Shown here in pieces: positions 12,283-50,680 of a stretch of DNA of 64,000 bases. Both the position numbers and the translations under genes were made by a program. The DNA lies in the NCBI GenBank assembly GCA_963827385.1, contig CAWHAR010000002.1, forward strand, positions 223,656 through 287,655. The letters are read 5' to 3'. The notes beneath the pieces are model-generated. The model made no database searches and was not told the DNA's origin. It was given only the letters and a program-made list of their open reading frames with translations. How positions within the stretch are numbered: the first letter of the stretch is position 1; the number at the start of each line of letters is the position of its first letter. The DNA is from an uncultured Actinomycetes bacterium. GTDB taxonomy: Bacteria > Actinomycetota > Acidimicrobiia > IMCC26256 > DASPTH01.

Positions 12283-15200
12283 TTGATGAAGTCGAGGGTT
12301 GGGATGCATTCGTCGGGCCGGGGAAGCACTCGACGCACCATTGCGAGCCTCGTGGCGATGTTCGCAGCCGTCTCGGGACTCCCAGTGGTCTTCGTAGTTG
12401 CCTCGCAGTCGGCGGCATTCGCTGTCTCGTCGGGCAGCCAGACCTTCGTCTACACGCCATCCGGCCAGAACTTCGTAGTTCCGGCAGGCGTCACCTCCGT
12501 GGCAGTCGACGCGTTTGGGGCCCAAGGCGTGGGCAGCGGGGCCCCAGAGGCGGACTAGGTGCACGGGCGCAAGGCGTGATCGCTGTTACGCCGGGTGAGA
12601 CGCTGCAAGTCCGAGTCGGTCCCAGTGGCGGGCCAGCGCCGACCTTCAATGGCGGCGGAACAGGCGGGGCGTCGAGCTCGAGCGGCGGAACAGGAGGCGG
12701 CGCGAGCGATGTTCGCCGGTCACCGTATTCCCTCGCGGACCGCCTGATTGTGGCGGCAGGGGGCGGTGGTGGGGGCGCCCGTGGTTCCCTGCCTTCAAGC
12801 GGCCCAGGCGGATACGGGGGAACCGGCGTCCGTTGGGGGGCGACGGGACCGATGGACCGCATGGTACTAAGGCTTGGGCGTGACTGGTGCCGCAGGCGGG
12901 CAACCAAGTCTGGATGCCGACAGCTGCAATAACAACCACAACGACGTAGCAACGGCAGGCGCTTTCGGCCAAGGCGGCAGTGGGTGGAGTGCCTCTGCCT
13001 GCCTGGACCTAGGCGGTGGTGGGGGTGGCGGTGGTTACTACGGCGGTGGTGGAGGAGGCCGTTCCAGCGGCGGAGGCGGCGGGACAAGCTATGTGGAGGA
13101 GCCTCGATCAGCTCTATGACGCCCGGCGTTCGAAGTGGGTCAGGCCAGGTCGTCCTCTCTTGGGGCCAGTTGATCCCCTTTGGTGGAGGGCTTGCGACGA
13201 ACGAGACCTTGGGCGATGGCCCGTGCCCTGGTACTGGATCTCAGGTCAGTGTGGCGGCTCCGATCAACACGGCAACGGGGGCACTTTTGGCATACGTTCA
13301 CAGACCTCACCGTTCCTGGCCGTGGCGCGGCGCTTGAGTTGACCCGGACTTTCAACTCGACGGACGCTAACGAACGACAGTTGGTTCGGTATGGGTTGGT
13401 CGTCGAGTTACGACATGAGCCTCAATGTCCAAGGCGTGACGGCGACCCTCAAGATGGACGATGGCAGCCGCGTTACGTTCACGCAGGCCAATGGAACAGG
13501 CGCTTGGTCTGCACCGGCACGCTCGGACTCGACCCTCGCGGCAAACGGCGACGGAACCTGGACCGTGGTCTGCCACGCAACCGACACCTACGTCTTCGAC
13601 GTGACCGGTCGCCTGATAGCGAAGCGCGATCCGAATGGGTACACGACATCGATCTCCTACCCGTCGGGTCAAACTGTGGTCACCGACCCTGCGAGCCGCA
13701 CGCTTACCTTCGTGTTCAACGGCACACACGTGACGTCCGTGACGGACTCGGGGTTCGCCGGCTCGGTCGTTGACATACACCTACAACGGCTCGGGGGAGC
13801 TGACAGACGTCATCGACGTGGGCGGCGGTCATTGGGTATTCACCTATGACGGTTCGCATCGCATGTTGACGATGCGCACCCCACGATTCTTCGGTGACAC
13901 AACCACGACTCCGACGCCGGTGACAACGAACCACTACGACGGTCAGGGGCGCGTCGATTCGCAGAATGATCCACTGGGCCGGCAAACGAGCTTCGATTAC
14001 ACGACGGCACCAGGCTCGACGATTGTGACCGACCCGAAGACCAACAAGGTCCAATACACGTACCTGTACGGACTGCTCGTCAGCGAAACAAGGGCCTATG
14101 GGACGGCTCAAGCCGCGACGCTGGCAATACCTCTACGATCCGGTGTCCACCGCGATGACCAGCGTCGTCGACCCGAACAATCACATGTGGTCGGCGGGCT
14201 ACGACGCGGACGGGGAATCAGTTGTCGAACTCCGATCCGCTCACTCGTTCGACCAGCGCGACGTACAACGCGGTCAACGAACCGCAACGCAGACTGACGC
14301 CAAGAACGTCACGACGACGTCGACCTACGATTTGGCGGCAATCTGTTGACGAGCTCGACGCCCTGGGTGGAGGGTCCACCGAACACGAACAGAGTGATGA
14401 CGTATCACTACGACGACGCAACCCATCGTGGTGACATCACCTCAGTGACGGACCCGGACAACAAGACGTGGGTGTACACCTACGACGGCGCAGGCAACCT
14501 GGCATCGGCCGCCGACCCGCTCGGGAACACCTCACAAATTCCGTTATGACGCGACGGCCGGCGGACGGCGGCGATCAGTCCACTTGGCACCGCCGGCGGG
14601 GTGTCGTGCGCGACCGCCTCTCCGGCACCGTACACGATCTACTTCACTCGCAACGCGTACGGCGCCACGCTGACCGTGACTGACCCGCTCGGGCATCAGT
14701 CGGTGCTGACCTACGACGTGGACCAGAACCTCAAGACGTCGAAGGATCCCGACAACAACCAGACCACCTACGTCTACGACCCGGCGGAGCAACGCACGCA
14801 GATCACTCGTCCCGATACGACGACGTTGAAGACCGACTACTGGCCCGACGGCACGCTCAAGTCACAAACCGACGGCGCGAACCAGACGACCAGCTACGCC
14901 TACGACGCGTCGGCGCATCTGACAACCGTCACCGACCCACCGCCGGGTGACCAGCACAGCTACACGGCGGTTGGGGACATGCTCGCGAACAGGACCCTGG
15001 TGGGAACTGCGCCGCGACCCCTAAGACGGGGTGCACGACGTACGGCTACGACCCCGCGAACCAGCTGACATCGGTCACCTACTCCGACGGCGTCACGCCG
15101 AACGTATCGAACATCGGCTACGACAACGACGGGCAACGCACCGCGATGACCGACGGCACCGGCAACTCGAGCTGGGTGTGGGACTCGCTGCACCGCATGA

Positions 15201-17322
15201 GTATCCACGACGGGCGCGGGTACGACGGTCGGGTACAGCTATGACCTCGCGGCAACCTGACAGATTGCGTATCCCGGCACGACCGGCACCGTGACCGCGC
15301 GGTACGACGACGCCGGCCGACTCCACACGGTCACCGACTGGCTCAGCCACACCACGACGTTCAACTACAACGCCGACAACTTCCTCGACGTCGCAGTTGT
15401 ACCTAACACAACGACCGCAACGTTCACGCCCGACGGTGCCGACCGGCTCATGGGCATCACCGACACCAAGGACGAACACCCTCGCGTCCGTTCACCTACG
15501 GCCGTGACAACGCAAACCAGGTCACCTCTGTCACCTCGACCGGCGTACCCGACCGACAACCACTCCTACAGCTACACCCAGCTCAACCAGCTCAAGACCC
15601 AAGACGCCAAGCAACTACAGCTACGACAACGCTGACAACCCCACCGGCCTCGCCGACGGCCCAACCCAGGCGTTCGACACTGCGAATCAGCTCACCGGCG
15701 CGACAAGCACATCACCTCGTCGGCGCCGCTGGTGGCGGAACGCCAGCACCCCGAACACCGTGACGGTCAACCTGCCCAGCGGCACAACGACTAACGACCA
15801 GATCGTCGTCGGCCGCCACCGTGCAGAAGAGCCAGACCGTCAACACGCCGACCGGTTATACGGTCGTCGGCACGTACACGTCGGGAAACCCAACGCTGAC
15901 ACCAAGACGGTCGTATTCCGCAGGACTGCCCAATCCGGCGACACCAACGTCGCTGATCACCTTCGGCGCCAGCATCGCCAAGAGTGTCGATCGTGGCCGT
16001 GTACCGCGGCGTCAACCCCAACACCCCGTCGACGTCCCCTCGAGCGCCGGCAACGACAAGGTCACCAGCATCGCCGTGCCGTCGGTCACGACAACGGCCG
16101 CGAACGAGCGACTCGTCAACATCGCCGGTGAAGCCAACGCCACCGGCGCCTGGACCGTCCCAACCGGATGACCAGCCGCAACACCGCGACCTTCGGAAAC
16201 AGCAGCACCGTCCTCGCCGACCAGACCCTCGCCGCAGCCGGCGCCACCGGCACCCGGACCGACACCTTCAGCACCAAGGCCAACCTCGTCGGCGTGCTGC
16301 TCGCCCTCAAGCCCGCACGACCCTACGGGTACGACCCGCGGCAACCGCACCACAGTCACGCCCGCAGGGGGCTCACCGACGACGCTCGGCTACGACCAAG
16401 CCAACCGGCTCAAGAGCTACGGCACCACCGCCACGTACGGCTACAACGGCGACGGGCTCCGCAGAACAAGACGTCGCAGGCACCACGACCCAACAAACCT
16501 GGGACGTCGCCGAAGGCTACCGCTCGTTCTCGCCGACGGCACCACGACTACGTCACGGGGCCCTGCGGACTCCCGCTCGAACAGATCAACGGCACCACCG
16601 TCCTCTACTACCACCAAGACCAGCTCGGCAGCGCCCGCAGCCCTCACCGACAGCGCTGGCAACATCGTCCTACATACACCTACGATTCCTATGGCAAACT
16701 CACCGCAGCATCGGCACCACCCCGAGACGCCCTTCGGATTCGCCGGTCAATACACCGACCCGGAGACTGGGATTCAGTACCTCCGTGCTCGGTACTTCGA
16801 TCCCAGCACGGCCAGTTCTTACCCGAGATCCCGCAACGACCTACACCCGAGGCGTGTACGCATACGCCGGCGCGAGTCCCTGTAACGCATCCGACCCTTC
16901 TGGCTACTGCACGGAAGAGATCTCCTCGATCTCATCCTGTGTGGACGGGTTCTGCCACAACCCGTTGACACGCGTGCTCATCACAGTCGGCAGCATCATT
17001 CCGTCGGCTCAGGGAATACGCGACCGGATACACGACGGATACTGCGATTCGATACTTGGCCGCTAGAGGCTTCGAAAGCGCAGCCCGCATCGCAGGAAAG
17101 GTCTCGACCATCGTTGCGGTTCTCGGCACCACAGCCGATGTGCTGTGCGGCGGGCTGAGTTCCCTCAATGCACTCAGCGAGCTATTCCAAGGCTCACGCT
17201 CGATCAACACAACCCCCTATCCCGATTCGAGCTCTCCAACTGGACAAACCTATGAGAGCGGCAGTGCGTCTGGCCCATACATGACTAACGAGGTGTTCCC
17301 ACAAACCCAACATCATCCTTGA
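12283..17322 (+). pseudogene. Rhs/YD-repeat toxin with signal peptide, glycine-rich N-terminal domain, RHS core and unknown C-terminal tip; many frameshifts
   Basis: The reading frame hops between all three + frames: ORFs 12283, 12219, 12874, 12984, 13180, 13391, 13770, 14098, 14346, 14601 and onward to 16691, 15984 and 17056. Signal peptide: RRTIASLVAMFAAVSGLPVVFVVASQSAAFA. Gly-rich domain: VIAVTPGETLQVRVGPSGG...GGGGGGGYYGGGGGG. Also PINTATGA and YD repeats (YTYDGAGNLASAADPLGN, YAYDASAHLTTVTDP). Core end is PFGFAGQYTDPETGIQYLRARYFDPSTA (16730-16813), then YAYAGASPCNASDPSGY, followed by a tail of about 140 aa. Confidence 0.8.
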
Positions 17323-23445: not shown

Positions 23446-23493
23446 AGAGGGCGCCTCGTCGCCTAGCCGAGCCAGAGCGGGCAATATGCCCGG

Positions 23494-24294
23494 GTGACTG
23501 ACGACGTTGAGGTGCTACACGGTGGTGTAGCGAACGCGGGCCAGGTCGTGCGCGTCGGCGACGATGTGCTGCGACCAGCGCCATCAAATGGCGCGACCAT
23601 CCACCGCTTGCTTCGACACCTCGTCGACGGCGGCATCGGCATCGCGCCCGAACCGCGAGCCCTTGCCGACGGGCGAGAGAAGCTCGGTTTCATCCATGGC
23701 GATGTGCCGGTACCTCCGTATCCCGATTGGGCGCAGTCGGACCGGGCGTTGGCGTCAATCTCGGCACTGATTCGAGCGTTGCACGACGCGTCGCGCACCT
23801 TTGCTCATGAGAGCGGCGACGCTTGGAGTACCGAGATGGCTGACGAGCGCCCCGGTGGCTCGGTGGTGTGCCACAACGACGTGTGCTTGGAGAACGTCGT
23901 CTTTCAAGGCGGCGTCGCCGTCGCGCTCCTCGACTTCGACTACGCCGCGCCGGGCAGGCCGAGCCACGACTTGGCCTGCTTCGCCCGCATGTGCGTGCCC
24001 ATCGATGACGAGACGAGCCGCGCAAACCTCGGGTGGAGCGCAGTCGATGGTCCTTCGCGTTTGCGCCTGGTCGCCGATGAATATGGGTGCACAGCAACCG
24101 AGCGCAGAGAGATCTTGGAGACACTCGACCGACAGATCGCGCGTGGTGGCGAGTTCGTGCTGCGTCACGTCGAGGCGGGCGAACCGGGTTTCGTTGCGAT
24201 GTGGGCTTCGATCGGCGGAATGGCGCGCTTCGACCGTCGACGAGATTGGTGGAGCTCATACCGTGACGACTTCGCCACGGCGATGGACGCGTAG
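23494..24294 (+). CDS. phosphotransferase enzyme family protein (APH/choline-kinase fold)
   Basis: Intact 266-aa ORF. LHGGVANAGQVVRVGDDVLRP at the N-terminus, catalytic loop VVCHNDVCLENVVF and LLDFDYAAPG. Confidence 0.8.
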   Translation: MTDDVEVLHGGVANAGQVVRVGDDVLRPAPSNGATIHRLLRHLVDGGIGIAPEPRALADGREKLGFIHGDVPVPPYPDWAQSDRALASISALIRALHDASRTFAHESGDAWSTEMADERPGGSVVCHNDVCLENVVFQGGVAVALLDFDYAAPGRPSHDLACFARMCVPIDDETSRANLGWSAVDGPSRLRLVADEYGCTATERREILETLDRQIARGGEFVLRHVEAGEPGFVAMWASIGGMARFDRRRDWWSSYRDDFATAMDA

Positions 24295-24566
24295 CCACGC
24301 CATAACTGCCGACTTGTCTCGGTAGTTGTGTGAATTGGCGAATGCTCGCCTGTTGCATGGCGGCCGCCCCAGACGAGGAAGATCCGGCGTGGCCCGGTCG
24401 GGTGCTTCGGGCGCGTACGACTATCTCACGGCGCGTGTCGGCTTCACGGGGCGCACCGCTATTGCACGATCGATCCCGGTCCAACAATGATCCAGCATGC
24501 GCTACGACCGATTGGCGAACAGCGCTCGTGCGGCGGTCTCGTCCGCCGACGATGATCCCGTGGAGC

Positions 24567-25397
24567 ATGGCTTCTCGCGCTCTGTCGGGGGGCATGACGA
24601 ACGACGTGTTCGTCCCGGTCGAGCGTCCGGACCTTGTCGTGAAGGTCTTTCAAGGCGGCCGCGCCGACGAGCCGGAGCAGGAATGGGACGCGGCCTGATG
24701 GCTCTCACGGGCTCCGGGATCGTGCCGGGACCCGGTCCACTTCGAGCGCAGCAGTCCAGCCGTCGTTGTGATGACGCGAGTGCCCGGTTCGGCCCTGCAC
24801 GCGGGGCGCTTGCACAGGAACACGCCCACGCGATCGGCAACACACATCGCCTCGTGCACGCGGCCGTCCCGGAACACCGACGAATCCCCGCCCACACAGA
24901 GCTGCGCAGCACCCAGGCTATCCCTTATGCAAGACAGACCAACCCGACCTTGGCGCACACCACCGACGCGGACGGATCTCGTCGCAACAGCATGGCGGGC
25001 AGCTCGGGCGTGGATCGCTGACGCCGACATCGATCGCCTCTTTGCCGCCGAGCGACTTCGGTTCTGCCGCGGCGACCCGAACGCGAGCAACTACCTGTGG
25101 AGCGACGACAGCCTCATGCTCATCGACTGGGAGAACAGCGGCTACAACGACCCGGCCCTTGAGCTTGCGGACATGGCCGAGCACGCGAGCACTCGGACTC
25201 TCGGGCAAGACTTCTGGAGTTCCGTTGCTGACGCCACCGAACTCACCGCCGAAGACCGAGCACGCGTCGTGCACGGTCGACGGTTCATGGCGTGCTGCTG
25301 GCTCGTCATCATCGACAGCAGACACCGCCAAGGGCGACCAACAACCGTGACACCTGAAGAACAAGCCCATCGCACGCTCGCCACACTCGATCTCTGA
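24567..25397 (+). CDS. phosphotransferase enzyme family protein, frameshifted
   Basis: ATG at 24567 (MASRALSGGMTNDVFVPVERPDLVVKVF). The middle lies in ORF 24497..25021. The C-terminus lies in ORF 24768..25397 (FCRGDPNASNYLWSDDSLMLIDWENSGYNDPALELAD). Confidence 0.6.
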
Positions 25398-26268: not shown

Positions 26269-26547
26269 AGCCGCTCCATGCCCGAGAGCTGCTGCGCAAA
26301 ACGGCGAAGCCGAAGTTCGTTGTCCCCCGCCGAGACGAGCGAGCGTGACCACGGCGCCCGAGTGCCCGCGCCTGTCGAGGGGAGCGTGCTAGAACCTCGC
26401 CATGCAGGTACAAGGTGCGGATCCGCGGCGCGGCGCATGGCGATGAGAGATGAATGACGCGACGCAATGCGCCGTCGTCGCCATCGCGATCGCCACAGGG
26501 TCCATGGTGTTCGCGGCCGGGCAGTCTTGGTCGACAGGAGCCCGAGC

Positions 26548-27222
26548 ATGAACGACGATTTCGCGACCCGAGTGAACCAGTTCGTCACAGGCCCCGAAAC
26601 GAAACGAGCAGCCGAATCGCTAGAGGAGTACCTCGACAGATACAGCGGCAGGCACTTCGAACAACTCGCCGACTCTGACGGCGACCACTTCACCGCGAAT
26701 GACATCGTGGCGGTCAGCATGCTCAGCGTGACTGTTCCCGCCGAAGCAGCGAGCTGGCTCCTAGGCGACGACGGCGCGGATCAAACATCGGCGTTACTTC
26801 AGCTGATCCAGCCCGCGAATCTCGAGATCTGGGATGACCGCGCCGATCTGTCGAACGGCAGCCCCGCCTCGCAGCTCTGGCGATCCGTGAAGGATCTCAA
26901 GGGGGTTGGGCGAACGACTGCGAGCAAGCTGCTCGCGACCAAACGTCCTCACCTGTTCCCGATCTACGACAGTGTGGTGAGCGCTGCGCTCGGTATCGGG
27001 CGTCGCGACGACTGGCAGCTCTGGCAGACATTCCTGCGATCCCCTGAGGCTGAACCGGCGAAGGACGCAGTACAGCAGCTCCACCATGAGGTCCCGAGAA
27101 GCGAACACCTCTCGACACTCCGCACGCTCGACATCATCATCTGGATCCGCGTCCACGGCTACAAATTCTCGAAACAGCTCTCTCACTTCGCGGATGTTCC
27201 AGCACCGGATCCCAGCAGCTAA
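26548..27222 (+). CDS. hypothetical protein (DUF6308-like by recollection)
   Basis: ATG at 26548 preceded by GACAGGAG. 224 aa, balanced composition (FTANDIVAVSMLSVTVPAEAASWLL...VGRTTASKLLATKRPHLFPIYDSVV). Confidence 0.55.
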   Translation: MNDDFATRVNQFVTGPETKRAAESLEEYLDRYSGRHFEQLADSDGDHFTANDIVAVSMLSVTVPAEAASWLLGDDGADQTSALLQLIQPANLEIWDDRADLSNGSPASQLWRSVKDLKGVGRTTASKLLATKRPHLFPIYDSVVSAALGIGRRDDWQLWQTFLRSPEAEPAKDAVQQLHHEVPRSEHLSTLRTLDIIIWIRVHGYKFSKQLSHFADVPAPDPSS

Positions 27223-27364: not shown

Positions 27365-27556
27365 TCAACCGCTACTTGAACATCTTCCAGAACATCCGCC
27401 GACCTTGCGCTGGCGGCCGGACTTGCTCCACGGGATACCGGTCGCCCGCGAAACCTTTCGTTTCGCATTGGTGATCCCCACCGCACGCCTCCAGCTGAAG
27501 CCACCTCTGTTCACGGCCCGGACCTCTTTCGCGTTATCCGACACCGATGCGCCTAG
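27365..27556 (-). pseudogene. small ORF interrupted by the IS481-family element (distal 62 codons)
   Basis: Removing 27557-28608 and one CTAG copy joins ATGCACCAGCACCAAGCCGCG (28613-28633, minus strand) in frame to LGASVSDNAKEVRAVNRGGFSWRRAVGITNAKRKVSRATGIPWSKSGRQRKVGG. The result is a 70-codon ORF. Confidence 0.45.
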
Positions 27557-28608
27557 CTGTTGTGCCCTGGGACGTTGTTGACATCCGCTGAGTAGTTGGC
27601 CCCCTGGGTCGAGTGTGGAGCTGTCGAAGGCAACACACACACCCAGGAGGGCCGATGCACGGTAACGCTCCACTCACGCCGGAAGGTCGGCTGCGGCTGT
27701 GCCGGCGGATCGAGGACGGTTGGACGGTCGCGGCGGCGGCCGAGTCGATGAACATCTCCCGCCAGTGCGCCCACAAGTGGTGGCGCCGTTACCGCGCACG
27801 AAGGCGTCGCCGGGCTGCGGGACCGGTCGAGCCGGCCGTGGTCGTGTCCGCATCAGACCCCGGCGCGGGTCGAACGGCGGATCGTGGCGTTGCGTCAGTC
27901 CCGCAAGCTCGGCCCGGCCCGCCTGGCCGGCATCGTCGGCGTCCCGGCGTCGACCGTGCATCGGGTGCTGGTCCGTCACGGCGTGAACCGGTTGCGGTGG
28001 ATGGACCGCCCGACCGGTCGGGTGATCCGGCGGATCGAGACCAGCCGCTGCGGCGAGCTGGTCCACATCGACGTCAAGAAACTGGCCCGGATCCCGGACG
28101 GTGGCGGCCACCGCAAGCTCGGGCGGACGCACCGCAGACCGCCGCGAGCGCACCAAGCGCGAGGCGGCTACACCCACATCCACACCGCCATCGACGCCTA
28201 CCGCCGGCTCGCGTACTCGCGAGTTCGCCGGCGTCGAGAACACCATCAACTGCGTCGCGTTCCTCGACCGCGCCGTCGCCTGGTTCGCCGCAACAGGGCA
28301 TCGCGATCGAACGGGTCCTGACCGACAACGGCAACGGCTACCGCAGCCATCGCGCTGGCGAGACCGCTGCGCCGAGCTCGGCATCCGCCACACCCGCACC
28401 CGGCCCTACCGGCCCGCCACCAACGGCAAAGTCGAACGGTTCAACCGCACCCTCGCCGACGAATGGGCCTACGCCCGGCTCTGGAAATCAGAAGCCGCCC
28501 GAGCCCGCGCCCTTGACCGCTTCCTCCACCGCTACAACCATCACCGACACCACACCGCCATCGGCGGCCCACCCGCCAGCCGAGTCACAACCTGGCAGGG
28601 CACAACAC
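27557..28608 (+). mobile_element. IS481-family insertion sequence (about 1.05 kb) flanked by CTAG
   Basis: Terminal inverted repeats are CTGTTGTGCCCTGGGACG (27557-) and the reverse complement of the right end, GTGTTGTGCCCTGCCAGG (-28608). CTAG occurs on both flanks (27553-27556 and 28609-28612), which is the known IS481-family target. Confidence 0.8.
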
Positions 28609-28612
28609 CTAG
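27655..28612 (+). pseudogene. IS481-family DDE transposase, several frameshifts
   Basis: MHGNAPLTPEGRLRLCRRIEDGWTVAAAAESMNISRQCAHKWWRRY (ATG 27655). Then LRQSRKLGPARLAGIVGVPASTVHRVL...GELVHIDVKKLARIPDGGGH (ORF 27884). Then RPYRPATNGKVERFNRTLADEW (ORF 28101). The predicted stop TAG at 28610-28612 is supplied by the flanking CTAG. Confidence 0.8.
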
Positions 28613-29044: not shown

Positions 29045-29548
29045 TCAGCCTTCCGGCGTGGGTGGGATTGAGAGTCCGCTCCATCCGACGTCGATCGCAG
29101 GATCAAGCACTAGCGGGAACGTCTCTGTGCGTGTCCCCGTACCGTCCTTCCAATGCGCTTCAACCTTCACGAATACGTGTCGCGGATGTGGGGCTCCAAT
29201 AACGATCGGAAGTTCGAACCGCTGTCGGGGAGACAAGGTGACTGGGAACGCGTCAGCGATCAATGCCAAATCAAGGAACGCGTTGCCGTCGTCGCGTGCA
29301 GCGAGCTGAATGTCGGTGGCGCTCGAGGGTCCTTCGTTGCTGATCACTAGAACCCTTTGGACCGCGTGCCGAATCGTGATGTTGATCGTCGCCGTTGCTC
29401 GGTCGCTGCGGTCAGCCGACATCCGCTCTGACTCGTTGCGAGCGATCAACTCTGAAGCACGTGCCGCTCGCCAAGCGCTCACGGCTGCGACGGCTGCGAA
29501 TCCGGCAGCAAAGGCACTCACGATGAGGCCAGCGGTTGCCGCCGTCAT
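29045..29548 (-). CDS. N-terminally membrane-anchored hypothetical protein
   Basis: Intact 167-aa ORF. TM helix GLIVSAFAAGFAAVAAVSAW, then a beta-rich soluble domain. Its start overlaps the upstream stop as ATGA (29545-29548). Confidence 0.6.
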   Translation of the reverse strand: MTAATAGLIVSAFAAGFAAVAAVSAWRAARASELIARNESERMSADRSDRATATINITIRHAVQRVLVISNEGPSSATDIQLAARDDGNAFLDLALIADAFPVTLSPRQRFELPIVIGAPHPRHVFVKVEAHWKDGTGTRTETFPLVLDPAIDVGWSGLSIPPTPEG

Positions 29549-30220
29549 CGTCGCCGCCGTGGGCGACGCCCGTGCATGTTCACCTTGCGGCGGAAGCTTT
29601 CAGGCGATTCGACGTGAAGATCCCGCTGACGGTGCTGAAACCAGGCCGTTCGCGCTGCCCATCGATGGTATTCATCCCACAGCCGCCCGTCGAAGTGCAA
29701 CGCGTCATCGAAGGTTTTCACCACGAGAGGGTTCGGTTCGGCGTGCGGGCGAGCCGCACACACTCGCCTAAGCGCGATGTCTGGCGCAACCCCAGCCGCG
29801 CACAGAACCCCCAGCGCGAGAGCGGGCGACCGTCCATATGCGCCGGCGCACGAAACTAGGAGCGTGTCGCGACCGCCGAGGTTTCGACGCACGAAGGAAA
29901 TAGACCGCTCCGCGAGGTCGCTTGTGAATGCGCCGGGACTCGAAGTGCTCTACGACATCCCTGAACGCTAAGCAAAGGTACGGAGTCCAGTCCGTCAGAG
30001 GTTCACCACAGTTGGCCTCGTCGTCCACGATCTCGATCATCGCCACGTCAGACCATTTCCAGCCACCCAAGTCTGATCGTCTGCAAAGTCGAACATCGAG
30101 ATCCATCGAAGGTGATCCCTTCCTTGTACGTGAACGCAGATCGTCTGGAAGCCAGCGAGTCTCATCAACCTGACCCGACGTCTGACTCGGGACCCAGACG
30201 TGCGCTGATGCGGGCTTCAT
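29545..30220 (-). CDS. predicted Cys-based phosphatase (COG5350-type protein tyrosine phosphatase-like, CX5R), one frameshift
   Basis: The N-terminal part lies in ORF 29768..30247 and the C-terminal part in ORF 29545..29892, with LLVSCAGAYGRSPALALGVLCAAG (P-loop C-x5-R) and PNPLVVKTFDDAL. The start ATG at 30218-30220 overlaps the MazG-like stop as ATGA. Confidence 0.6.
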
Positions 30221-30497
30221 CCGCATGCACATGGCAGCGCCCCGCAATGTGGGCAGCCGTCCGCGAACCGTGTCACAGCGTCTTCCAGCGACAGGCCGAG
30301 TTGATGTGCGAGAGAGGCGAGCCAGGCCAAGACGTCGCCAAGCTCGTGGAGCTGTTGGTCCGTCGATCCCTTGCGCACGGCTTGGGCGAGCTCACCAACT
30401 TCCTCAACGAGCCAGGCGACGCTCGCGGGATCCCGCGGGAAGAGTCGCGTTCGCCGTAGGTGGCTATAACTCGATCTTGGAACGAACTGAGCTCCAT
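30217..30497 (-). CDS. MazG-like all-alpha nucleotide pyrophosphohydrolase, one frameshift
   Basis: The N-terminus MELSSFQDRVIATYGERD lies in ORF 30273..30497 (RBS AAGGGAG). The rest lies in the frame of ORF 30217..30732: VAWLVEEVGELAQAVRKG ... ELGDVLAWLASLAHQLG ... CPHCGALPCAC. EExxE and ExxD metal motifs are present. Confidence 0.65.
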
Positions 30498-31594
30498 CCC
30501 TCGGACTCCCTTGACTTAGGCGGACGAGTTCCGCGATGCCATCAGCGACCGCCGCCGCCGTACCGATCCAGAATCCTGCCTCGCGCCAGACCGACTCCAC
30601 GCCACAGGATCCCAAGAACTCGGTGTACGCCTCGCCGACCGATTCGGTGAACAGCGCCACGAGACGCACCGGCGAGCCCGCGGCGTAGAGGAAGTGGCGG
30701 TAGCTGAACAGCTGGCCGAGCGCGGCACGCACCGCGCTCGTCGCGTCGGTGCAAGTACACGACTTTCGCTTCGATCAACCACTCGTCATCACCGCGACGC
30801 AACACCAGATCTCGGGGATGTTCGGTCGAAGGAACCAGACCTTGGTGATGCACCCACTCGCCGTATTGGCGCACCAAGGTTTCGTGGCGGCGCGACTTCC
30901 CGAGCTTGCGGCCGACGATGTACGACACGTACTCGGAGTCGTCTTTCGGTTTGAAGTTACGCAGTGGGTCTTCATTGAGACCGTCACCGGTCGTGGGCGA
31001 TGCGACCGAGCCGGGATTCGTGAGCAGCAGTTCGCGTTTCACGGCAATCGCGTCTTCGTAGAGCCCGAGGTAGCGATCGAGGTCTCGCTCGAGGACAGCG
31101 TCGTCTGGAAGTGCGACAAGTTCGTAGCGTGTCGCGATGATGTTGCCTGCTTGGTAGTTCCGTTGCCGATCACCATTCGATGACAGGTCCATCTCGGTCA
31201 GCAGGCCTGTGGTGGTCCCGTCCGTGAGGCCTTCCCTGATTGCGAGCGCATCTACCGCGAGTCGTGCGCGGGCCTTGCTGTTACCGATCTCGCTGCGCAG
31301 GTGCTCCATCCCCTGGTTCAAAGTCAACGTGACGCTTGCAAGGTCTTGCGCGAACAGGTAAACGACGTAGATGCCTTCCTGAGGGTCGGTTGTCTCGTCA
31401 GGATCGAAGAACCCGACCCATGGCGTGTACGTCGCTGAGCCTTTCCCTCCACTTCCGACGATGGTGACGCCGCCCGGCGCATAGTCAGCCAGTTCGGTGC
31501 CGGCGTGTCGCAGCAGCTGCTGCGCAGAGGTCTGAAGCCCGTCTTCGCGGCGATAGGTCATCGCGATTTCTTGAAGGAACTCGCGAAGCTTCAC
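30498..31594 (-). CDS. DUF3578 (McrB N-terminal-like DNA reader) fused to a PD-(D/E)xK nuclease-like domain; frameshift, stop unresolved
   Basis: GTG at 31594 with GGGGGAG upstream. VKLREFLQEI...VGSGGKGSATYTPWVGFFDPDETTDPQEGIYVVYLFAQD...LTLNQG is the DUF3578/MrcB_N pattern. The C-terminus DEWLIEAKVV continues in another frame as VRAALGQLFSYRHFLY. No in-frame stop occurs before the MazG-like gene. Confidence 0.6.
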
Positions 31595-31798: not shown

Positions 31799-32827
31799 TC
31801 AAGATTTGGCGGTCTGTTCTCGGGATCGTTTTGCGGCGTCTCGTAGTTCGCTTCGTAGTTCTTGGCGGGCGATCGACGCCGCGGCGAGTTCGTTCAGGAA
31901 GGCGTCGGCGTTCCAAGCCAGCAGTTTTGGATGGCGAGCGGAGTAGAGACCGACGTCGGTCATGTTGTATTCGTCGTCGTAGTCCAAGAGGAGGTAGCCC
32001 GCGAGTTGCCAGAGGTGTTCTCGTTTACAGCTTGTCGATTCGGTGGTCTTCACGTCGATGAGGCACCGGTCGAGGATCAGGTCAGCGTCCGCACCACCAA
32101 CGTCGCGACTTCCCCGGAAGGTCGGGTTCAACGCGTGAGATCGAACTCCGCTTGCCGGGAACTGCGTCCCGAACGCTTCCGTGAGGACAGCAAGGTCGTC
32201 GAGCCATGCAGGCTCCGCGAGGGCGAGTAGGTCTTCAACGCTCGCGCTCGGCCCAGCCTCGACCAGCGCTCGAGCGACGCGACCGGAGCGTCCGCATTGC
32301 TCGAAGAACGCGAGCACGATGCAGAACCGTCCGAGCTGTGCCTCGTCACTGGTGGGCAGCGTTCGTCCGATGGGAGATGTCTCGGCCAGGAATGTGTCGA
32401 GCGCGTCCGCTAGCGGCAAGAACGGGTCTCGGATGGTGTCTTGCCACACGATCTGGTCGCCTTCGAGGTGGAGATCTCTCACGTCTGGCGGAAGATCGGC
32501 CGCAGCGTCGATCGGCGCCGAGCGCGACGGGTTGAACGCCGAGTGGTGCAACAGCCGCTGCGCGCCCTGGGCGGCAAAGAGCTCGCGGGTCGGGGTGACC
32601 GCGAACAGGTACCGCAGCCGGTAATCGAACGCGGTACCGACAAGCGAGGCATCCCCGGGTGCGCCGCGGCGAACCAGCGTGGGACGACCGAGCGCATGCC
32701 ACTCCCGCTGGAACTTCTCGACTCGGGGCAGTCTGCTCTCAAACCATTCCCGAACCGGGTTGGACCGACTTTTCAGGAGGCTGCTCAACGACACGCCACG
32801 AAAGTAGCGACCACCTGTGACACTCAA
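31799..32827 (-). CDS. PD-(D/E)xK nuclease superfamily-like hypothetical protein
   Basis: Intact 342-aa ORF with balanced composition. Candidate catalytic motif GADADLILDRCLIDVKTT followed by LWQLAGYLLLDY. Confidence 0.6.
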   Translation of the reverse strand: MSVTGGRYFRGVSLSSLLKSRSNPVREWFESRLPRVEKFQREWHALGRPTLVRRGAPGDASLVGTAFDYRLRYLFAVTPTRELFAAQGAQRLLHHSAFNPSRSAPIDAAADLPPDVRDLHLEGDQIVWQDTIRDPFLPLADALDTFLAETSPIGRTLPTSDEAQLGRFCIVLAFFEQCGRSGRVARALVEAGPSASVEDLLALAEPAWLDDLAVLTEAFGTQFPASGVRSHALNPTFRGSRDVGGADADLILDRCLIDVKTTESTSCKREHLWQLAGYLLLDYDDEYNMTDVGLYSARHPKLLAWNADAFLNELAAASIARQELRSELRDAAKRSREQTAKS

Positions 32828-33667: not shown

Positions 33668-34804
33668 TCACACTGCGGGTTCCGCGTGTTCGAACGCGTC
33701 GCACGCGGCTTCGAGCATGTGTTGCAGTGCGTTCGTCTCGATGAGTGATCGCATCGTTGGAACTCGGTGGTTGAGCAGTGCGATGGTCACATGATTCAGA
33801 GCGATGAGCGCCGCGGAAGCGGGTTCGGCGAGTCCATGCGTGGTGGAGCCGCCGAGGGTGACGAAGGTGCCGTCGGGGAACTCGACTCGATTGAGGTACG
33901 AGCCTTTCGAGCCGCCGTGGTTCGTGTGATTTGCGAGGTTCACATACGGCCGATGATGCGCGAGGTCTACGCGTTCCGCGAGGTCGACGAACGTGACGCT
34001 CGAACGACCCGGGAACAGGGGCAGTGCCCAACCCCAGTCGTTGCAGTAGTCCGCGCCGAATTGATCGCGAAGCTCGTCTCGAGCATCAGCGAGTTCTTGC
34101 ATCTCGGCATCGGTGAATCGTTCGTGCCCGAGCGTCTCGGCGTGATCCTGCCAGCGCTGCGCGTCTTTCCAGTTCCCGACGGCTACATGCGAGACGAATC
34201 GTTCGGAGAGTGTCTCATCCGCGTCGGCGAGGAGAAACGCGACGACCGCGAGTTCGTGCATCGTGCGCCACCGTGCGAACGCGCCGTTCGGGTGACCGGT
34301 GCGCAGCAGCGCATGCACCTCAGATGCCGTCGTACATGCTCGGGCATGCACCATCAAGAGTGCGCCGGTGCGCCATTCGTACTCGTCGTCGGTGTCGGCG
34401 ATGTACAGAGCCTGGATTCGGCCACCGACCTCGAGACACGAGTTGTAGAACAGCCGGTAAAGGTCGAGCGCTGCCCCCCATTGGCGACGCAACATCCGTT
34501 CGACACGACGCAAGTCTCGTGCATCCGCACGCGCAAACTTGCGCACCTTGGCGAGGACCTCTTGGCTGACGAGTTCGCCACCGGTGGCGGTCGAGTTCGA
34601 GATTACGTCGGACCATCCATCTGCAATCTCGGCTTGCTTCTTCTCCCAGAGGTCGAGCATCTCGTCTTCGCTCAGACCACGCTGCTGGCCCGTCGCGATG
34701 AATTCGTCGATCAGCTGCTCGAAGAGATCTTCCGGTTGGGCATCGAAGAACGCCTCATCAGTCACCACGGATGCAACGGTACGTGCCACCAGCTCCAACA
34801 GCAT
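33668..34804 (-). CDS. DUF5677-like protein
   Basis: Last 378 aa of ORF 33668..35152 from MLLELVARTV. Contains LLRTGHPNGAFARWRTMHELAVVAFLL, which I recall as DUF5677-like. The upstream part of the ORF is shadow and overlaps the next gene. Confidence 0.6.
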   Translation of the reverse strand: MLLELVARTVASVVTDEAFFDAQPEDLFEQLIDEFIATGQQRGLSEDEMLDLWEKKQAEIADGWSDVISNSTATGGELVSQEVLAKVRKFARADARDLRRVERMLRRQWGAALDLYRLFYNSCLEVGGRIQALYIADTDDEYEWRTGALLMVHARACTTASEVHALLRTGHPNGAFARWRTMHELAVVAFLLADADETLSERFVSHVAVGNWKDAQRWQDHAETLGHERFTDAEMQELADARDELRDQFGADYCNDWGWALPLFPGRSSVTFVDLAERVDLAHHRPYVNLANHTNHGGSKGSYLNRVEFPDGTFVTLGGSTTHGLAEPASAALIALNHVTIALLNHRVPTMRSLIETNALQHMLEAACDAFEHAEPAV

Positions 34805-34851
34805 CGGCCGATGGCACCGGGCTCTCTGTCGTCCGGTGTACTGAAGGTCCC

Positions 34852-35628
34852 CTAGCCGGACGCGTCGCCGCATGCTGCGTGCAGCAGAGCAGCGTCGGCC
34901 GCGACGCCGACCTCCCCGTCGTACGAGCGGAGTCGCGCGCTGACCGGATACATCGACGGGTGTGCCAGCGCGACCGCCCGACAGCGATGTCCGTCGATCG
35001 TGACAGCGGCAACGTTTATGTTCGATCTGCGCGACCATACGGCGAGGTCTGGACTGAGCCGGGCGCAGAATCGCCGAGCGGGCGCGCCCAAAGCCACCAG
35101 CACCGACGGGCGCATCCGGTCGATCTGGAGACGCAAGAATCCCTCGCACCACGCGACGAACGTGGGATCTGACTCGCCCGGGAACCGGCCCGTCGGGCCG
35201 CCCTTCTCGATGAGACCGACGTACGCGTTCGTGAAGAAGCAGTTGGTCGGCTCCACACCCGCGGCGGGTAACAGGCGGTAGAGGCCACGCCAGGTCGCCA
35301 TCGGGTGCTCGCGATCACCATGAGCGCGGCCTTGTGCGAGCCGGTTCTGGTAGGCGGTGAGCACGTCGAGGTTGTGGCCGACGAACATCACGCCACCGAA
35401 TGGGAATGGTGGCAGCCCAACCTGGGAGGGCGGCGCCTCGCAGTAGAGCCCGGGACCGGCGGCGAAGAACGCCGTGCCATCTACCGCTTCCGGAACCGCG
35501 ACGACACCATCCGCATACCCGTCGAATTCGCCGAGCACGGCACGGAACTCGTCGACAGGATGCACACCCTCATCATCACATCGGACCTCGTGCAGCGCAC
35601 GCCGAGCCCACCCGAGCAGGCACGCCAT
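34852..35628 (-). CDS. uracil-DNA glycosylase superfamily protein
   Basis: Intact 258-aa ORF. Motif-A-like VMFVGHNLD, FFTNAYVG and motif-B LAHPSMY (HPS), as in the UDG superfamily. Confidence 0.65.
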   Translation of the reverse strand: MACLLGWARRALHEVRCDDEGVHPVDEFRAVLGEFDGYADGVVAVPEAVDGTAFFAAGPGLYCEAPPSQVGLPPFPFGGVMFVGHNLDVLTAYQNRLAQGRAHGDREHPMATWRGLYRLLPAAGVEPTNCFFTNAYVGLIEKGGPTGRFPGESDPTFVAWCEGFLRLQIDRMRPSVLVALGAPARRFCARLSPDLAVWSRRSNINVAAVTIDGHRCRAVALAHPSMYPVSARLRSYDGEVGVAADAALLHAACGDASG

Positions 35629-39254: not shown

Positions 39255-39515
39255 AACAGTTCTCCGTTCGGGGGTAGGCGGTTTGTATGGGTTCGTCCCA
39301 TTGTACCTCAGCCTTGCGGGACCCGTGGTCGCGCTCGCGCACCCTTCCTGACCAGCCCAAATGAACCCTGGAACGCCCCCACCCCTCCCCGCAAACAGAG
39401 GTACGTTAGGAGCACCTAACCACCATCCTGGAGAGCCCCTCGTGCACCACCCGGAACCCGCCCCTGACCCGACGACACCGCCGCTTCCCGTCCCGCAACT
39501 GGCAGGCGTCTAGCG

Positions 39516-40628
39516 GTGGGGCACGTCGCGCGACGCCACAACGTGGGCGGGTCGATCAGCTACCAAGGCGTCACCCGGACCCCCGAAGGCAAAGAACAAA
39601 CCCGAACCTTCGTCCGCAAACTCGACGCGCAACGCTGGGTCACCGCCCAAGACGCCGCCCGTCAACGCGGCGACTGGATCGACCCCACCGCGGGGCGCCA
39701 ACCCTTCGAGCCCTACGCCAAAGAATGGCTCACCACCAAACGCGCCACCGTCGCGCCCCGCACATACGTGAACCTCGAAGGACGGCTCCGCAACCACCTT
39801 CTCCCCGCCTTCGGGACACGGGCGCTCGCGTCGATCCACCCCGCCGACATCCGCACCTGGATCACAAAGCTGGTCGACGCCGGTCAGTCCCCAGCCAGCG
39901 TCAAGAAGAACTTCCAAATCCTCAACCAAATCCTGCGCACCGCCGAAATCGACCGACTCATCGGCCGCAACCCCGCCACGGGCATCGCACTCCCCCGCGA
40001 TACCCACCACCAAGAAATGACCTTCCTCAACCCCGCACAGATCACCCAACTCGCCGACAAGATCGCGCCCCGCTACAAGGCGCTCATCTACACCGCCGCC
40101 TACACCGGACTACGCGCCGGAGAACTCGAAGCGCTGCGCATCGCGGACCTCGACCTCCTCCACGGCACCATCTCCGTCCACGCGTCCCTCGCCGAAATCC
40201 ACGGCGAACTCCACGAAGGCCCCACCAAAACCGGACACAACCGCACCGTCGCACTCCCCCGGTTCCTGGTCCGGATGCTCGAGGGCCACCTCAGCGCACA
40301 CCCCTCCCACACGGGACACCTGTTTACGGCACCCGAAGGCGGCCCCATCCGCCACCGCGCCTTCATGGCCCGCCACTACCGACCCGCCGTCACCAAGGCT
40401 CAACTCGCACCCACGCTCCGATTCCACGACCTCCGCCACACCTGCGCCGCCCTCCTCATCGCCGCAGGCGCACACCTCGAAGAAATAAAAGACCACCTCG
40501 GCCACGCCACCATCCGCACCACCTCAGACCGCTACGGCCACCTCTACCAAGAAGCCCGCGAACGGCTCCGCGACCACCTCGACCACACCTACAGCGAGGC
40601 GCACACAACCGGAGCCGCGAGCGCATGA
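39516..40628 (+). CDS. tyrosine-type site-specific recombinase/integrase
   Basis: 370-aa ORF. SAM-like N-domain (TYVNLEGRLRNHLLPAFG) and catalytic residues in AAYTGLRAGELEALR, RFHDLRHTCAALLIAAG and LGHATIRTTSDRYGHLY. The N-terminus looks slightly short. Confidence 0.9.
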   Translation: MGHVARRHNVGGSISYQGVTRTPEGKEQTRTFVRKLDAQRWVTAQDAARQRGDWIDPTAGRQPFEPYAKEWLTTKRATVAPRTYVNLEGRLRNHLLPAFGTRALASIHPADIRTWITKLVDAGQSPASVKKNFQILNQILRTAEIDRLIGRNPATGIALPRDTHHQEMTFLNPAQITQLADKIAPRYKALIYTAAYTGLRAGELEALRIADLDLLHGTISVHASLAEIHGELHEGPTKTGHNRTVALPRFLVRMLEGHLSAHPSHTGHLFTAPEGGPIRHRAFMARHYRPAVTKAQLAPTLRFHDLRHTCAALLIAAGAHLEEIKDHLGHATIRTTSDRYGHLYQEARERLRDHLDHTYSEAHTTGAASA

Positions 40629-50569: not shown

Positions 50570-50651
50570 CAGCGGCCCGAAGGGGCCGCTGACCTGCAGT
50601 TCTCTGGAGCGGACGACGGGATTCGAACCCGCGACCCTCACCTTGGCAAGG
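50570..50651. repeat. right direct repeat of the island (3' half of the intact tRNA-Gly plus its downstream hairpin)
   Basis: Counterpart of 11685-11766. It has the 47-nt identical core 50605-50651 and the hairpin AGCGGCCC-GAAG-GGGCCGCT at 50571-50590. The 14-nt spacer is diverged. Confidence 0.85.
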
Positions 50652-50680
50652 TGATGCTCTACCAGCTGAGCCACGTCCGC
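50605..50680 (-). tRNA. tRNA-Gly (anticodon GCC), CCA encoded
   Basis: The reverse complement GCGGACGTGGCTCAGCTGGTAGAGCATCACCTTGCCAAGGTGAGGGTCGCGGGTTCGAATCCCGTCGTCCGCTCCA folds as a cloverleaf. It has a 7-bp acceptor GCGGACG/CGTCCGC, a D-arm GCTC/GAGC, an anticodon loop TTGCCAA and a T-loop TTCGAAT. Confidence 0.92.

Follow-up and report, generated by a model that had tools for sequence, protein, structure and literature searches.

A probable pair of unrelated two-gene cassettes, one joining a McrB-N reader-nuclease to a small MazG, in a mobile island of an uncultured actinobacterium

We analysed a four-gene locus in a 64,000 nt stretch of DNA (the window: positions 223,656 to 287,655 of contig CAWHAR010000002.1, assembly GCA_963827385.1) from an uncultured Actinomycetes bacterium, in which a McrB-N-type reader fused to a PD-(D/E)xK nuclease (gene 1), a small MazG-type nucleotide pyrophosphohydrolase (gene 2), a CX5R phosphatase (gene 3) and a membrane-anchored protein (gene 4) follow one another on the minus strand. 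The initial annotation had taken these genes for a single candidate defence operon. Our preferred reading, to which we give a probability of about 0.62, is that the locus comprises two adjoining cassettes of two genes each, unrelated to one another and arranged head to tail within a horizontally acquired island, with the nuclease and a MazG proposed to act on modified deoxycytidine triphosphates (dCTPs) forming module A, and the phosphatase and membrane protein forming module B. No other locus had all four genes, whilst the pairs 1+2 and 3+4 recur separately; the four-gene reading is unsupported because this co-occurrence is pairwise, not four-way, and because one of the two ATGA couplings cited for it is probably a false start.

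A comparison of the four products against 22 fetched loci using tblastn resolved two pairs, gene 1 with MazG and gene 3 with gene 4, the seam between them being a spacer of ~111 nt. Genes 1 and 2 were seen without genes 3 and 4, genes 3 and 4 without genes 1 and 2, and the two sets were never mixed outside the window; no relative of gene 3 or gene 4 was present in any gene-1 locus examined. The closest gene-1 relatives examined show the first pairing: in L001 (gene 1 at 61% identity) a MazG 70% identical to that of the window lies 7-10 nt downstream, and on the P0003 contig (~60%), whose setting is prophage-like and includes an integrase, a 93-aa MazG begins at the stop codon of gene 1. A third locus, L004 (57%), carries a different MazG-like gene (PF12643) in divergent orientation, 50 nt upstream, which looks like an independent recruitment. 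The second pairing is found in L013/L014, where the best gene-3 relative (P0121, 51% identity) is followed ~20 nt downstream by a gene-4 relative, with an IS481 transposase immediately upstream and no MrcB_N or MazG gene. Scans of viral contigs recovered three partial gene-1 loci, and plasmid and phage collections one full-length gene-1 match, without MazG; the same scans of viral contigs, plasmids and phages found nothing for MazG, gene 3 or gene 4.

The remaining neighbourhoods are more varied. No MazG-type neighbour accompanies the gene-1 relatives in L002/L003 (55%), in Nonomuraea (L016, 43%), in Kitasatospora (L017, 47-49%) or on a viral contig whose end cuts gene 1 (L018, 50%). Directly upstream of the pair in L001 (4181-5824 of that locus) is a gene for a 547-aa Cas1-domain protein, which may be a solo Cas1 or casposase-like, no other cas genes being called nearby. 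In L002/L003 (4200-7100) genes for a Vsr endonuclease and for a C5 DNA methyltransferase stand immediately before the gene-1 relative; an 1803-aa DEAD/YjiV helicase and a PDDEXK_1 protein are also encoded upstream of it. Among the gene-3 loci, L021 and L022 show no gene-4-like start in the 160-260 nt downstream, L022 being flanked by transposase fragments, and eight distant loci from genome and metagenome scans (Magnetospirillum, Rhizomicrobium and peat metagenomes) showed no partner gene. In L015, 80 nt past the end of the gene-3 relative (P0122), begins a 357-aa open-reading frame (ORF; 710-1780) that resembles, to judge by its sequence, a CCA-adding/poly(A) polymerase head joined to an HD domain; a CCA-adding/HD enzyme was considered as a conserved partner of gene 3 and rejected, as it is present in L015 only.

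In the window itself, the ORF map shows the minus strand from 31594 to 29045 filled by four co-directional, tightly packed reading frames over 2.55 kb, as first described (Table 1). Genes 1, 2 and 3 are each broken as the sequence stands, and gene 4 is the sole intact ORF of the four. After repair of the frames the intergenic gaps are 18 nt between gene 1 and MazG, ~111 nt between MazG and gene 3, and -4 nt between gene 3 and gene 4. The MazG start codon had been said to abut the upstream gene: the ATG is in place, but the genes come together only after repair, and then with the 18-nt gap between them, inside which lies a Shine-Dalgarno (SD) sequence (AAGGGAG, 30512-30506). Both ATGA overlaps exist in the sequence. 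At 29548-29545 the TGA of gene 3 overlaps the ATG of gene 4, and this coupling holds; at 30220-30217 the TGA of MazG overlaps an ATG, but here functional coupling is probably absent and the ATGA coincidental. The 114 nt from 30220 to 30107 have no coding signature, with GC contents of 0.61/0.61/0.55 at codon positions one, two and three, whereas all other gene segments have the second position lowest; most gene-3 relatives start ~5 residues ahead of the window's MDLDVRL without any upstream extension; and a strong SD sequence, AAGGAAGGGA (30125-30116), precedes the ATG at 30106. On these three grounds the ATG at 30106 is favoured about two to one over that at 30220 as the probable start of gene 3, and such a start would leave the ~111-nt seam between the modules. 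Junction repeats at this seam were sought and rejected, with only short, chance-level direct repeats present. A promoter and terminator scan of the locus was uninformative and a convincing terminator was not found.

Table 1. Features of the locus and of its surroundings in the window
Feature	Coordinates	Strand	Details
Module A (genes 1 and 2)	31594-30217	-	
Gene 1, reader-nuclease	30516-31594	-	GTG start 31594; ~358 aa after repair; TAA 30518-30516 reached only after two 1-nt repairs
Gene 1, reader domain (residues 48-194)	31013-31453	-	Pfam MrcB_N, profile positions 34-180 of 183
Gene 1, nuclease domain (~residues 224-358)	30519-30925	-	RRHE ... PRDLVL ... WLIEAK ... GQLxxYRHF
Gene 1, lesion A	30751	-	Apparent 1-nt insertion, TTG-C-ACC; from frame map, relatives' sequences, repair and translation
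Gene 1, lesion B (probable)	30519-30522	-	1-nt indel in CGCC just before TAA 30518-30516
Gene 2, MazG	30217-30497	-	93 aa after repair; ATG 30497-30495, TGA 30219-30217
MazG/gene-3 spacer, probably non-coding	30107-30216	-	Earlier read as the first 38 codons of gene 3
Module B (genes 3 and 4)	30106-29045	-	
Gene 3, CX5R phosphatase	29545-30106	-	~187 aa after repair; TGA 29547-29545; alternative start ATG 30220
Gene 4, membrane-anchored protein	29045-29548	-	167 aa; ATG 29548 to TGA 29047-29045
IS481-type insertion sequence	27553-28612	+	26-nt terminal inverted repeats, 85% complementary; ~430 nt past the gene-4 stop
PD-(D/E)xK protein, 342 aa	31799-32827	-	~200 nt upstream of gene 1; PADLOC RTasPDDEXK E 1.5e-9, C-terminal part; no Pfam match
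DUF5677 protein	33668-35152	-	E 1.9e-20
DUF6308 protein	26467-27222	+	E 5.8e-43
Two APH-type phosphotransferase fragments	23467-25397	+	One split kinase gene or two adjacent copies
YD-repeat/Rhs-type polymorphic-toxin fragments	13800-17100	+	Several frames, e.g. YTYNGSGELTDVID...FTYDGSHRML, TYVYDPAEQRTQITRPD
Tyrosine integrase	39468-40625	+	
tRNA-Gly(GCC) gene	50605-50680	-	
AftD-like arabinofuranosyltransferase gene	58014-53774	-	Four open segments in alternating frames; outside the low-GC island

Gene 1 is, as had been proposed, a McrB-N/DUF3578 reader joined to an EAK-type PD-(D/E)xK nuclease, with a D...EAK motif and a Pfam MrcB_N match at E 2.3e-32 that scores 112.6 bits where 25 is the cutoff. 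An indexed search returned 163 relatives, mostly of 354-367 aa, with MrcB_N as the sole Pfam domain and 96% of the repaired query covered; those with names come from Kitasatospora, Streptomyces, Amycolatopsis, Nonomuraea, Streptomonospora, Streptosporangium and Nocardioides. In an alignment of 17 sequences H237-E238, D262, E275-x-K277 and G293-Q294-L295...Y298 are invariant or nearly so. We built an AlphaFold2 model from this alignment (mean predicted local distance difference test score, pLDDT, 81.5) and compared it with the PDB using Foldseek. The model contains reader and nuclease domains only, joined by a disordered linker at residues 200-233. Its N-terminal domain matches the DNA-binding domain of EcoKMcrB (3ssc, 6gcd, 6gcf) with probability 1.00 and TM-scores of 0.54-0.60 relative to the target, the matched structures being complexes with DNA containing 5-methylcytosine (5mC), 5-hydroxymethylcytosine (5hmC), 5-formylcytosine or N4-methylcytosine (4mC). 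Matches to the C-terminal domain are the Hjc resolvase 4tkd (probability 0.97), AF1548 (1y88, probability 1.00) and the nuclease domains of Cdn1, Card1 and Can2. Profile alignment to 3ssc places McrB W49, Y64 and L68 at W59, Y76 and L80 of gene 1, where W59 and Y76 are invariant and leucine is the consensus at position 80, whilst McrB Y41 aligns with a lysine; these four McrB residues reportedly have roles in the base pocket. Base flipping by gene 1 is plausible. We found no AAA+ GTPase domain in gene 1 or its relatives of ~356-360 aa, either by Pfam or in the model, and no McrC/DUF2357 match among the scanned neighbours of gene 1. Gene 1 is thus a single-chain reader-nuclease of type IV logic and not a McrBC system. 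The searchable literature yielded no experimental characterisation of this fusion family, which appears to be a compact, NTP-independent (nucleoside triphosphate) and uncharacterised actinobacterial family.

The assignment of gene 2 to the MazG-type pyrophosphohydrolases holds: even unrepaired, its C-terminal frame scores 41.4 bits with the Pfam MazG profile, whose cutoff is 22. Its metal-binding motifs, EEVGE...ELGD, recur unchanged in the L001 orthologue, and both proteins carry a C-terminal CPHC-x4-C-x-C cluster. The closest solved structure is that of the uncharacterised Sulfolobus protein SSO3215 (1vmg, E 1e-15), whose alignment covers residues 1-76 and runs through the repaired junction. 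In the literature searched, no paper tied MazG to McrB or to type IV restriction.

Gene 3 had been described as a cysteine phosphatase with the loop VSCAGAYGRS, and this CX5R(S) loop is present, together with a general-acid aspartate in FRDV, an RPxAxPN motif and a tryptophan-rich, basic C-terminal tail. A word-indexed search for relatives returned nothing; an exhaustive HMMER search found 211 at E<=1e-3, 18 of them reaching 1e-10, the best (P0121) aligning over residues 84-214. Across a 25-sequence alignment D88, C125, R131, S132 and N164 are invariant and the family follows the pattern F-x-D ... (H/S)C-x-G-x-(I/Y)-G-R-S ... R-P-x-A-x-P-N; the window protein and P0121 have serine instead of the usual histidine before the catalytic cysteine. 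On its own, the window protein matches neither Pfam nor NCBIfam and reaches a PDB E-value of only 0.37. The family profile, by comparison, matches 134 PDB chains of dual-specificity phosphatases (DSPs) and protein tyrosine phosphatases (PTPs), the best at 5e-11; 22 of the 25 relatives match Pfam DSPc at E<=0.01, the scores viewed lying mostly under the gathering score of 33.5, and many also match the DSP-PTPase families PTP-SAK and Tc-R-P. In IMG the name 'predicted protein tyrosine phosphatase' is given to P0121, P0130 and P0273, and the close relatives looked up there form clusters of one or two members. We take gene 3 to be a true CX5R phosphatase, though an uncommon and divergent one, most probably of the DSP/PTP superfamily. 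Several distant relatives are fusions: P0148 joins a dCMP/cytidine deaminase to the DSP domain, P0206 an MptE-like pyrophosphokinase, and P0129, P0131 and P0133 an unannotated N-terminal domain of ~160 aa. The fusions of these distant relatives hint, as a lead only, that the substrate of gene 3 may be a nucleotide or small molecule rather than a protein.

Gene 4 encodes a single-pass membrane protein, as the earlier reading had it: residues 5-23 (Kyte-Doolittle mean 2.03) are its single hydrophobic segment, and the arginine-rich sequence after them suggests, by the positive-inside rule, that the C-terminal domain would be cytoplasmic. After the anchor comes a beta-rich domain of ~120 aa with the motifs LVIxNEGP, QRFELPxVxGxPHPR and WxDGTG. 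A single-sequence AlphaFold2 model of low confidence (pLDDT 54) supports only a long N-terminal helix and a beta-rich domain. Gene 4 had no Pfam, NCBIfam or PADLOC match and no homologue in the word-indexed search; the only relative found, by tblastn in L013/L014, is 43% identical (E 5e-33) and has the three motifs in common with it.

The mechanism that we propose for module A is that of an NTP-independent type IV restriction endonuclease in a single chain, followed by a 93-aa MazG. The McrB-N/DUF3578 domain would flip out and inspect a modified cytosine; cutting nearby, without NTP hydrolysis, would fall to the fused PD-(D/E)xK domain. The MazG, for its part, would hydrolyse modified dCTPs of the 5-methyl-dCTP and 5-hydroxymethyl-dCTP type to the monophosphate. 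This could serve in two ways, starving phages which build modified DNA, and keeping modified nucleotides released from degraded foreign DNA out of the host chromosome, which would then escape cleavage by gene 1. A precedent is the human MazG-like enzyme DCTPP1, which hydrolyses 5-methyl-dCTP and prevents its misincorporation (PMC4491611, PMC13291643). General depletion of deoxynucleoside triphosphates (dNTPs) or hydrolysis of signalling nucleotides are alternative roles for the MazG. Module B consists of a rare CX5R phosphatase, coupled by ATGA to a membrane-anchored, beta-rich protein, and it is associated with transposable elements.

Several points weigh against the reading of two unrelated cassettes with a nucleotide-sanitising MazG. 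The samples are small, with ~8 independent gene-1 neighbourhoods and ~12 gene-3 neighbourhoods readable, and confidence in the two-pair verdict is limited by these numbers. MazG is absent beside the gene-1 relatives of L002/L003, L016, L017 and L018; its pairing with gene 1 is therefore limited to a single subclade and may in part reflect inherited synteny. The adjacency of genes 3 and 4 is found in one independent locus only, and the gene-3 relatives P0122, P0123 and P0126 are without gene 4, two of the three having only 160-260 nt of sequence downstream. The substrate of MazG is itself proposed by analogy with DCTPP1, and the sequence of the reader, with a lysine at the equivalent of McrB Y41, gives no prediction of its base specificity. 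The C5-methyltransferase beside the gene-1 relative of L002/L003 is awkward for a general 5mC-dependent nuclease: with a 5mC writer next to a putative 5mC-dependent enzyme, either the sequence contexts of the two would differ or this clade would spare plain 5mC. Finally, the four genes could be co-transcribed in this genome, and a functional link between them may have evolved locally.

A bolder reading, which we hold only tentatively, makes the MazG a true partner of the McrB-N-nuclease clade and a sanitiser of modified dNTPs, so that the pair would be an undescribed two-component variant of type IV restriction, in its strongest form extended here by the phosphatase and membrane protein into a local four-gene pathway. 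The opposite reading, that gene 1 stands alone and that the MazG is a hitch-hiker with an unrelated housekeeping or phage-derived role, its adjacency being inherited synteny, strikes us as a little less probable still. Four of the eight independent gene-1 neighbourhoods, the window included, are without MazG, the closest relatives (57-61%) are those of the loci with a MazG, which is what shared ancestry would give, and single-chain type IV enzymes are generally partner-free (Loenen and Raleigh review, PMC3874153). Set against this, the flanking genes are wholly different in the window, L001 and the P0003 contig, and the pair has therefore moved as a unit; L004 has a non-orthologous MazG-like gene in the other orientation beside its gene-1 relative; the spacing is tight, from overlap to 18 nt; and with few MazG genes per genome, repeated chance adjacency is unlikely by a rough estimate that was not computed.

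The broken frames raise the question of whether the locus consists of decaying pseudogenes, the frameshifts being genuine and nothing functional. In gene 1, removal of the extra nucleotide at lesion A gives YLTDATSAVRAALGQ, where relatives show YLGNATEAVRAALGQ. Unrepaired at lesion B, the second frame of gene 1 runs without a stop into the C-terminal frame of MazG; this lesion is considered probable because the relatives stop no more than a few residues away from the '...AELVR' of the window. MazG has lost 1 nt in or beside a C run at ~30428 (RGIP/ASVAW in the window, RGISATVAW in L001, the slash marking the break), and gene 3 has a lesion at ~29938 beside a CCC run (...VEHFES/PGAFT... in the window, ...VVEE-QSPHAIT in P0121). 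In total there are at least four small indels in 2.55 kb, leaving three of the four genes broken, and the adjacent IS481 transposase and the YD-repeat toxin gene of the island are likewise frame-broken, all of which favours decay. However, the indels are all of 1-2 nt, two of them in or beside C runs, the repaired genes 1-3 have no nonsense codons or large deletions, and every catalytic and family-invariant residue is retained. An AftD-like gene outside the island is also broken, with the Pfam GT-C_AftD profile split over frames (positions 68-464 in one, 562-656 in another); AftD is a core cell-wall gene of the Corynebacteriales, and the AftD domain is the one ground on which we regarded the host of the island as a Corynebacteriales-type actinobacterium. 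The claim that the frameshift rate of the locus is close to the window background is roughly right, at ~4 lesions in 2.55 kb against ~3 in the 4.2 kb of the AftD-like gene, a difference which by our own Poisson estimate is not significant (p ~0.1). The similar rate in a core gene therefore points to window-wide error in sequence quality or assembly, or to general decay, and not to decay specific to the locus. Most simply, the indels are sequence errors or very recent decay common to the rest of the window, and we consider a locus of pseudogenes improbable.

Least probable of all, in our estimation, is that the four genes form one defence operon whose nuclease, MazG, phosphatase and membrane protein work jointly; MazG and the phosphatase might, for example, turn modified dNTPs stepwise into nucleosides while the nuclease destroys modified DNA. 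In its favour, the genes share one direction and are closely packed, the ATGA joining genes 3 and 4 is solid and the scan gave no terminator that convinces; conversion of an NTP to its monophosphate by MazG and then dephosphorylation by gene 3 would make good chemical sense as two steps; some distant relatives of gene 3 carry fused nucleotide enzymes; and the island is mobile with another PD-(D/E)xK protein adjoining. Against it, no other locus mixes genes of the two modules, the ATGA between MazG and gene 3 is probably a false start with the ~111-nt spacer separating the pairs, PADLOC gives no match and the closest relative of module B sits in an unrelated context beside an insertion sequence. 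The observation that the combination is unnamed as a defence system stands, PADLOC-DB v2 giving no model match at E<=0.1 for six fragments of genes 1-4.

The two cassettes of our preferred reading lie in a stretch from ~12 to 50 kb of the window in which GC content is ~0.62-0.65, against 0.67-0.72 in the flanks. A mobile island is a fair description of this stretch, as had been claimed, with an insertion sequence and an integrase inside it; the integrase, the tRNA-Gly gene and the low GC content together suggest one or more integrated elements. The IS481 element is single-copy in the window, and a composite transposon was rejected accordingly. The PD-(D/E)xK protein upstream of gene 1 matches RTasPDDEXK, the PD-(D/E)xK domain associated with defence-associated reverse transcriptases (DRT), and no reverse transcriptase is present near 31799-32827. 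On the plus strand at 13800-17100 we observed an AT skew of +0.27 to +0.45 and a GC skew of -0.14 to -0.24, which we attribute to the fragments of a YD-repeat/Rhs-type gene there; no tandem repeats were found in this stretch. The island further holds a helix-turn-helix (HTH) protein, S-adenosylmethionine (SAM) methyltransferases and a GNAT acetyltransferase. Neighbours in the window were considered as conserved partners of the locus and rejected, as none of the fetched loci holds a counterpart of the upstream PD-(D/E)xK protein, the DUF5677 and DUF6308 proteins or the HTH protein.

The locus illustrates that close packing and overlapping ATGA codons, in genes of a mobile island, are insufficient to define a system; comparing only a few neighbourhoods split this candidate in two. 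If the MazG partnership is true, it would show how a modification-dependent nuclease spares its own chromosome during the recycling of modified nucleotides, and it would give a concrete role, open to testing, to MazG domains, which have so far been predicted, and not validated, as defensive (PMC13092281). Enzymes of this kind have also served as reagents in the mapping of modified cytosines.

Compared with known systems, gene 1 resembles EcoKMcrBC in its N-terminal domain, which belongs to the family and fold of the McrB DNA-binding domain, and in leaving cleavage to a PD-(D/E)xK nuclease, as in McrC. The McrB domain flips out 5mC, 5hmC or 4mC. Gene 1 differs in having no AAA+ GTPase motor and no McrC/DUF2357 partner, and in the replacement of McrB Y41 by lysine; with reader and nuclease in one chain of ~358 aa, translocation-dependent cleavage between two sites is therefore not expected. 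Its architecture, one modified-base reader fused to one nuclease, is that of MspJI, PvuRts1I/AbaSI, Mrr and the winged-helix (wH) fusion enzymes, although its reader is DUF3578/ADAM and not SRA, EVE, Mrr-N or winged helix. Single-chain type IV enzymes are NTP-independent and have no cognate methyltransferase (PMC3874153, PMC11037411). Gene 3 has in common with atypical DSPs and the COG5350-like 'predicted protein tyrosine phosphatases' a CX5R(S) P-loop, an upstream general-acid aspartate and, at the level of its family profile, a match to the DSP fold, and is set apart from them by the serine before its cysteine, the RPxAxPN motif, the tryptophan-rich basic tail and its membrane-protein partner. 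Gene 2 is, like DCTPP1 and the house-cleaning MazG enzymes, an all-alpha MazG-type protein with EExxE...ExxD, and unlike them a 93-aa single domain with a C-terminal cysteine cluster. No description of a MazG beside a type IV nuclease was found in the searchable papers, and the recurring pairing of nuclease and MazG in one subclade, as a variant of type IV restriction, is the modestly new part of this locus.

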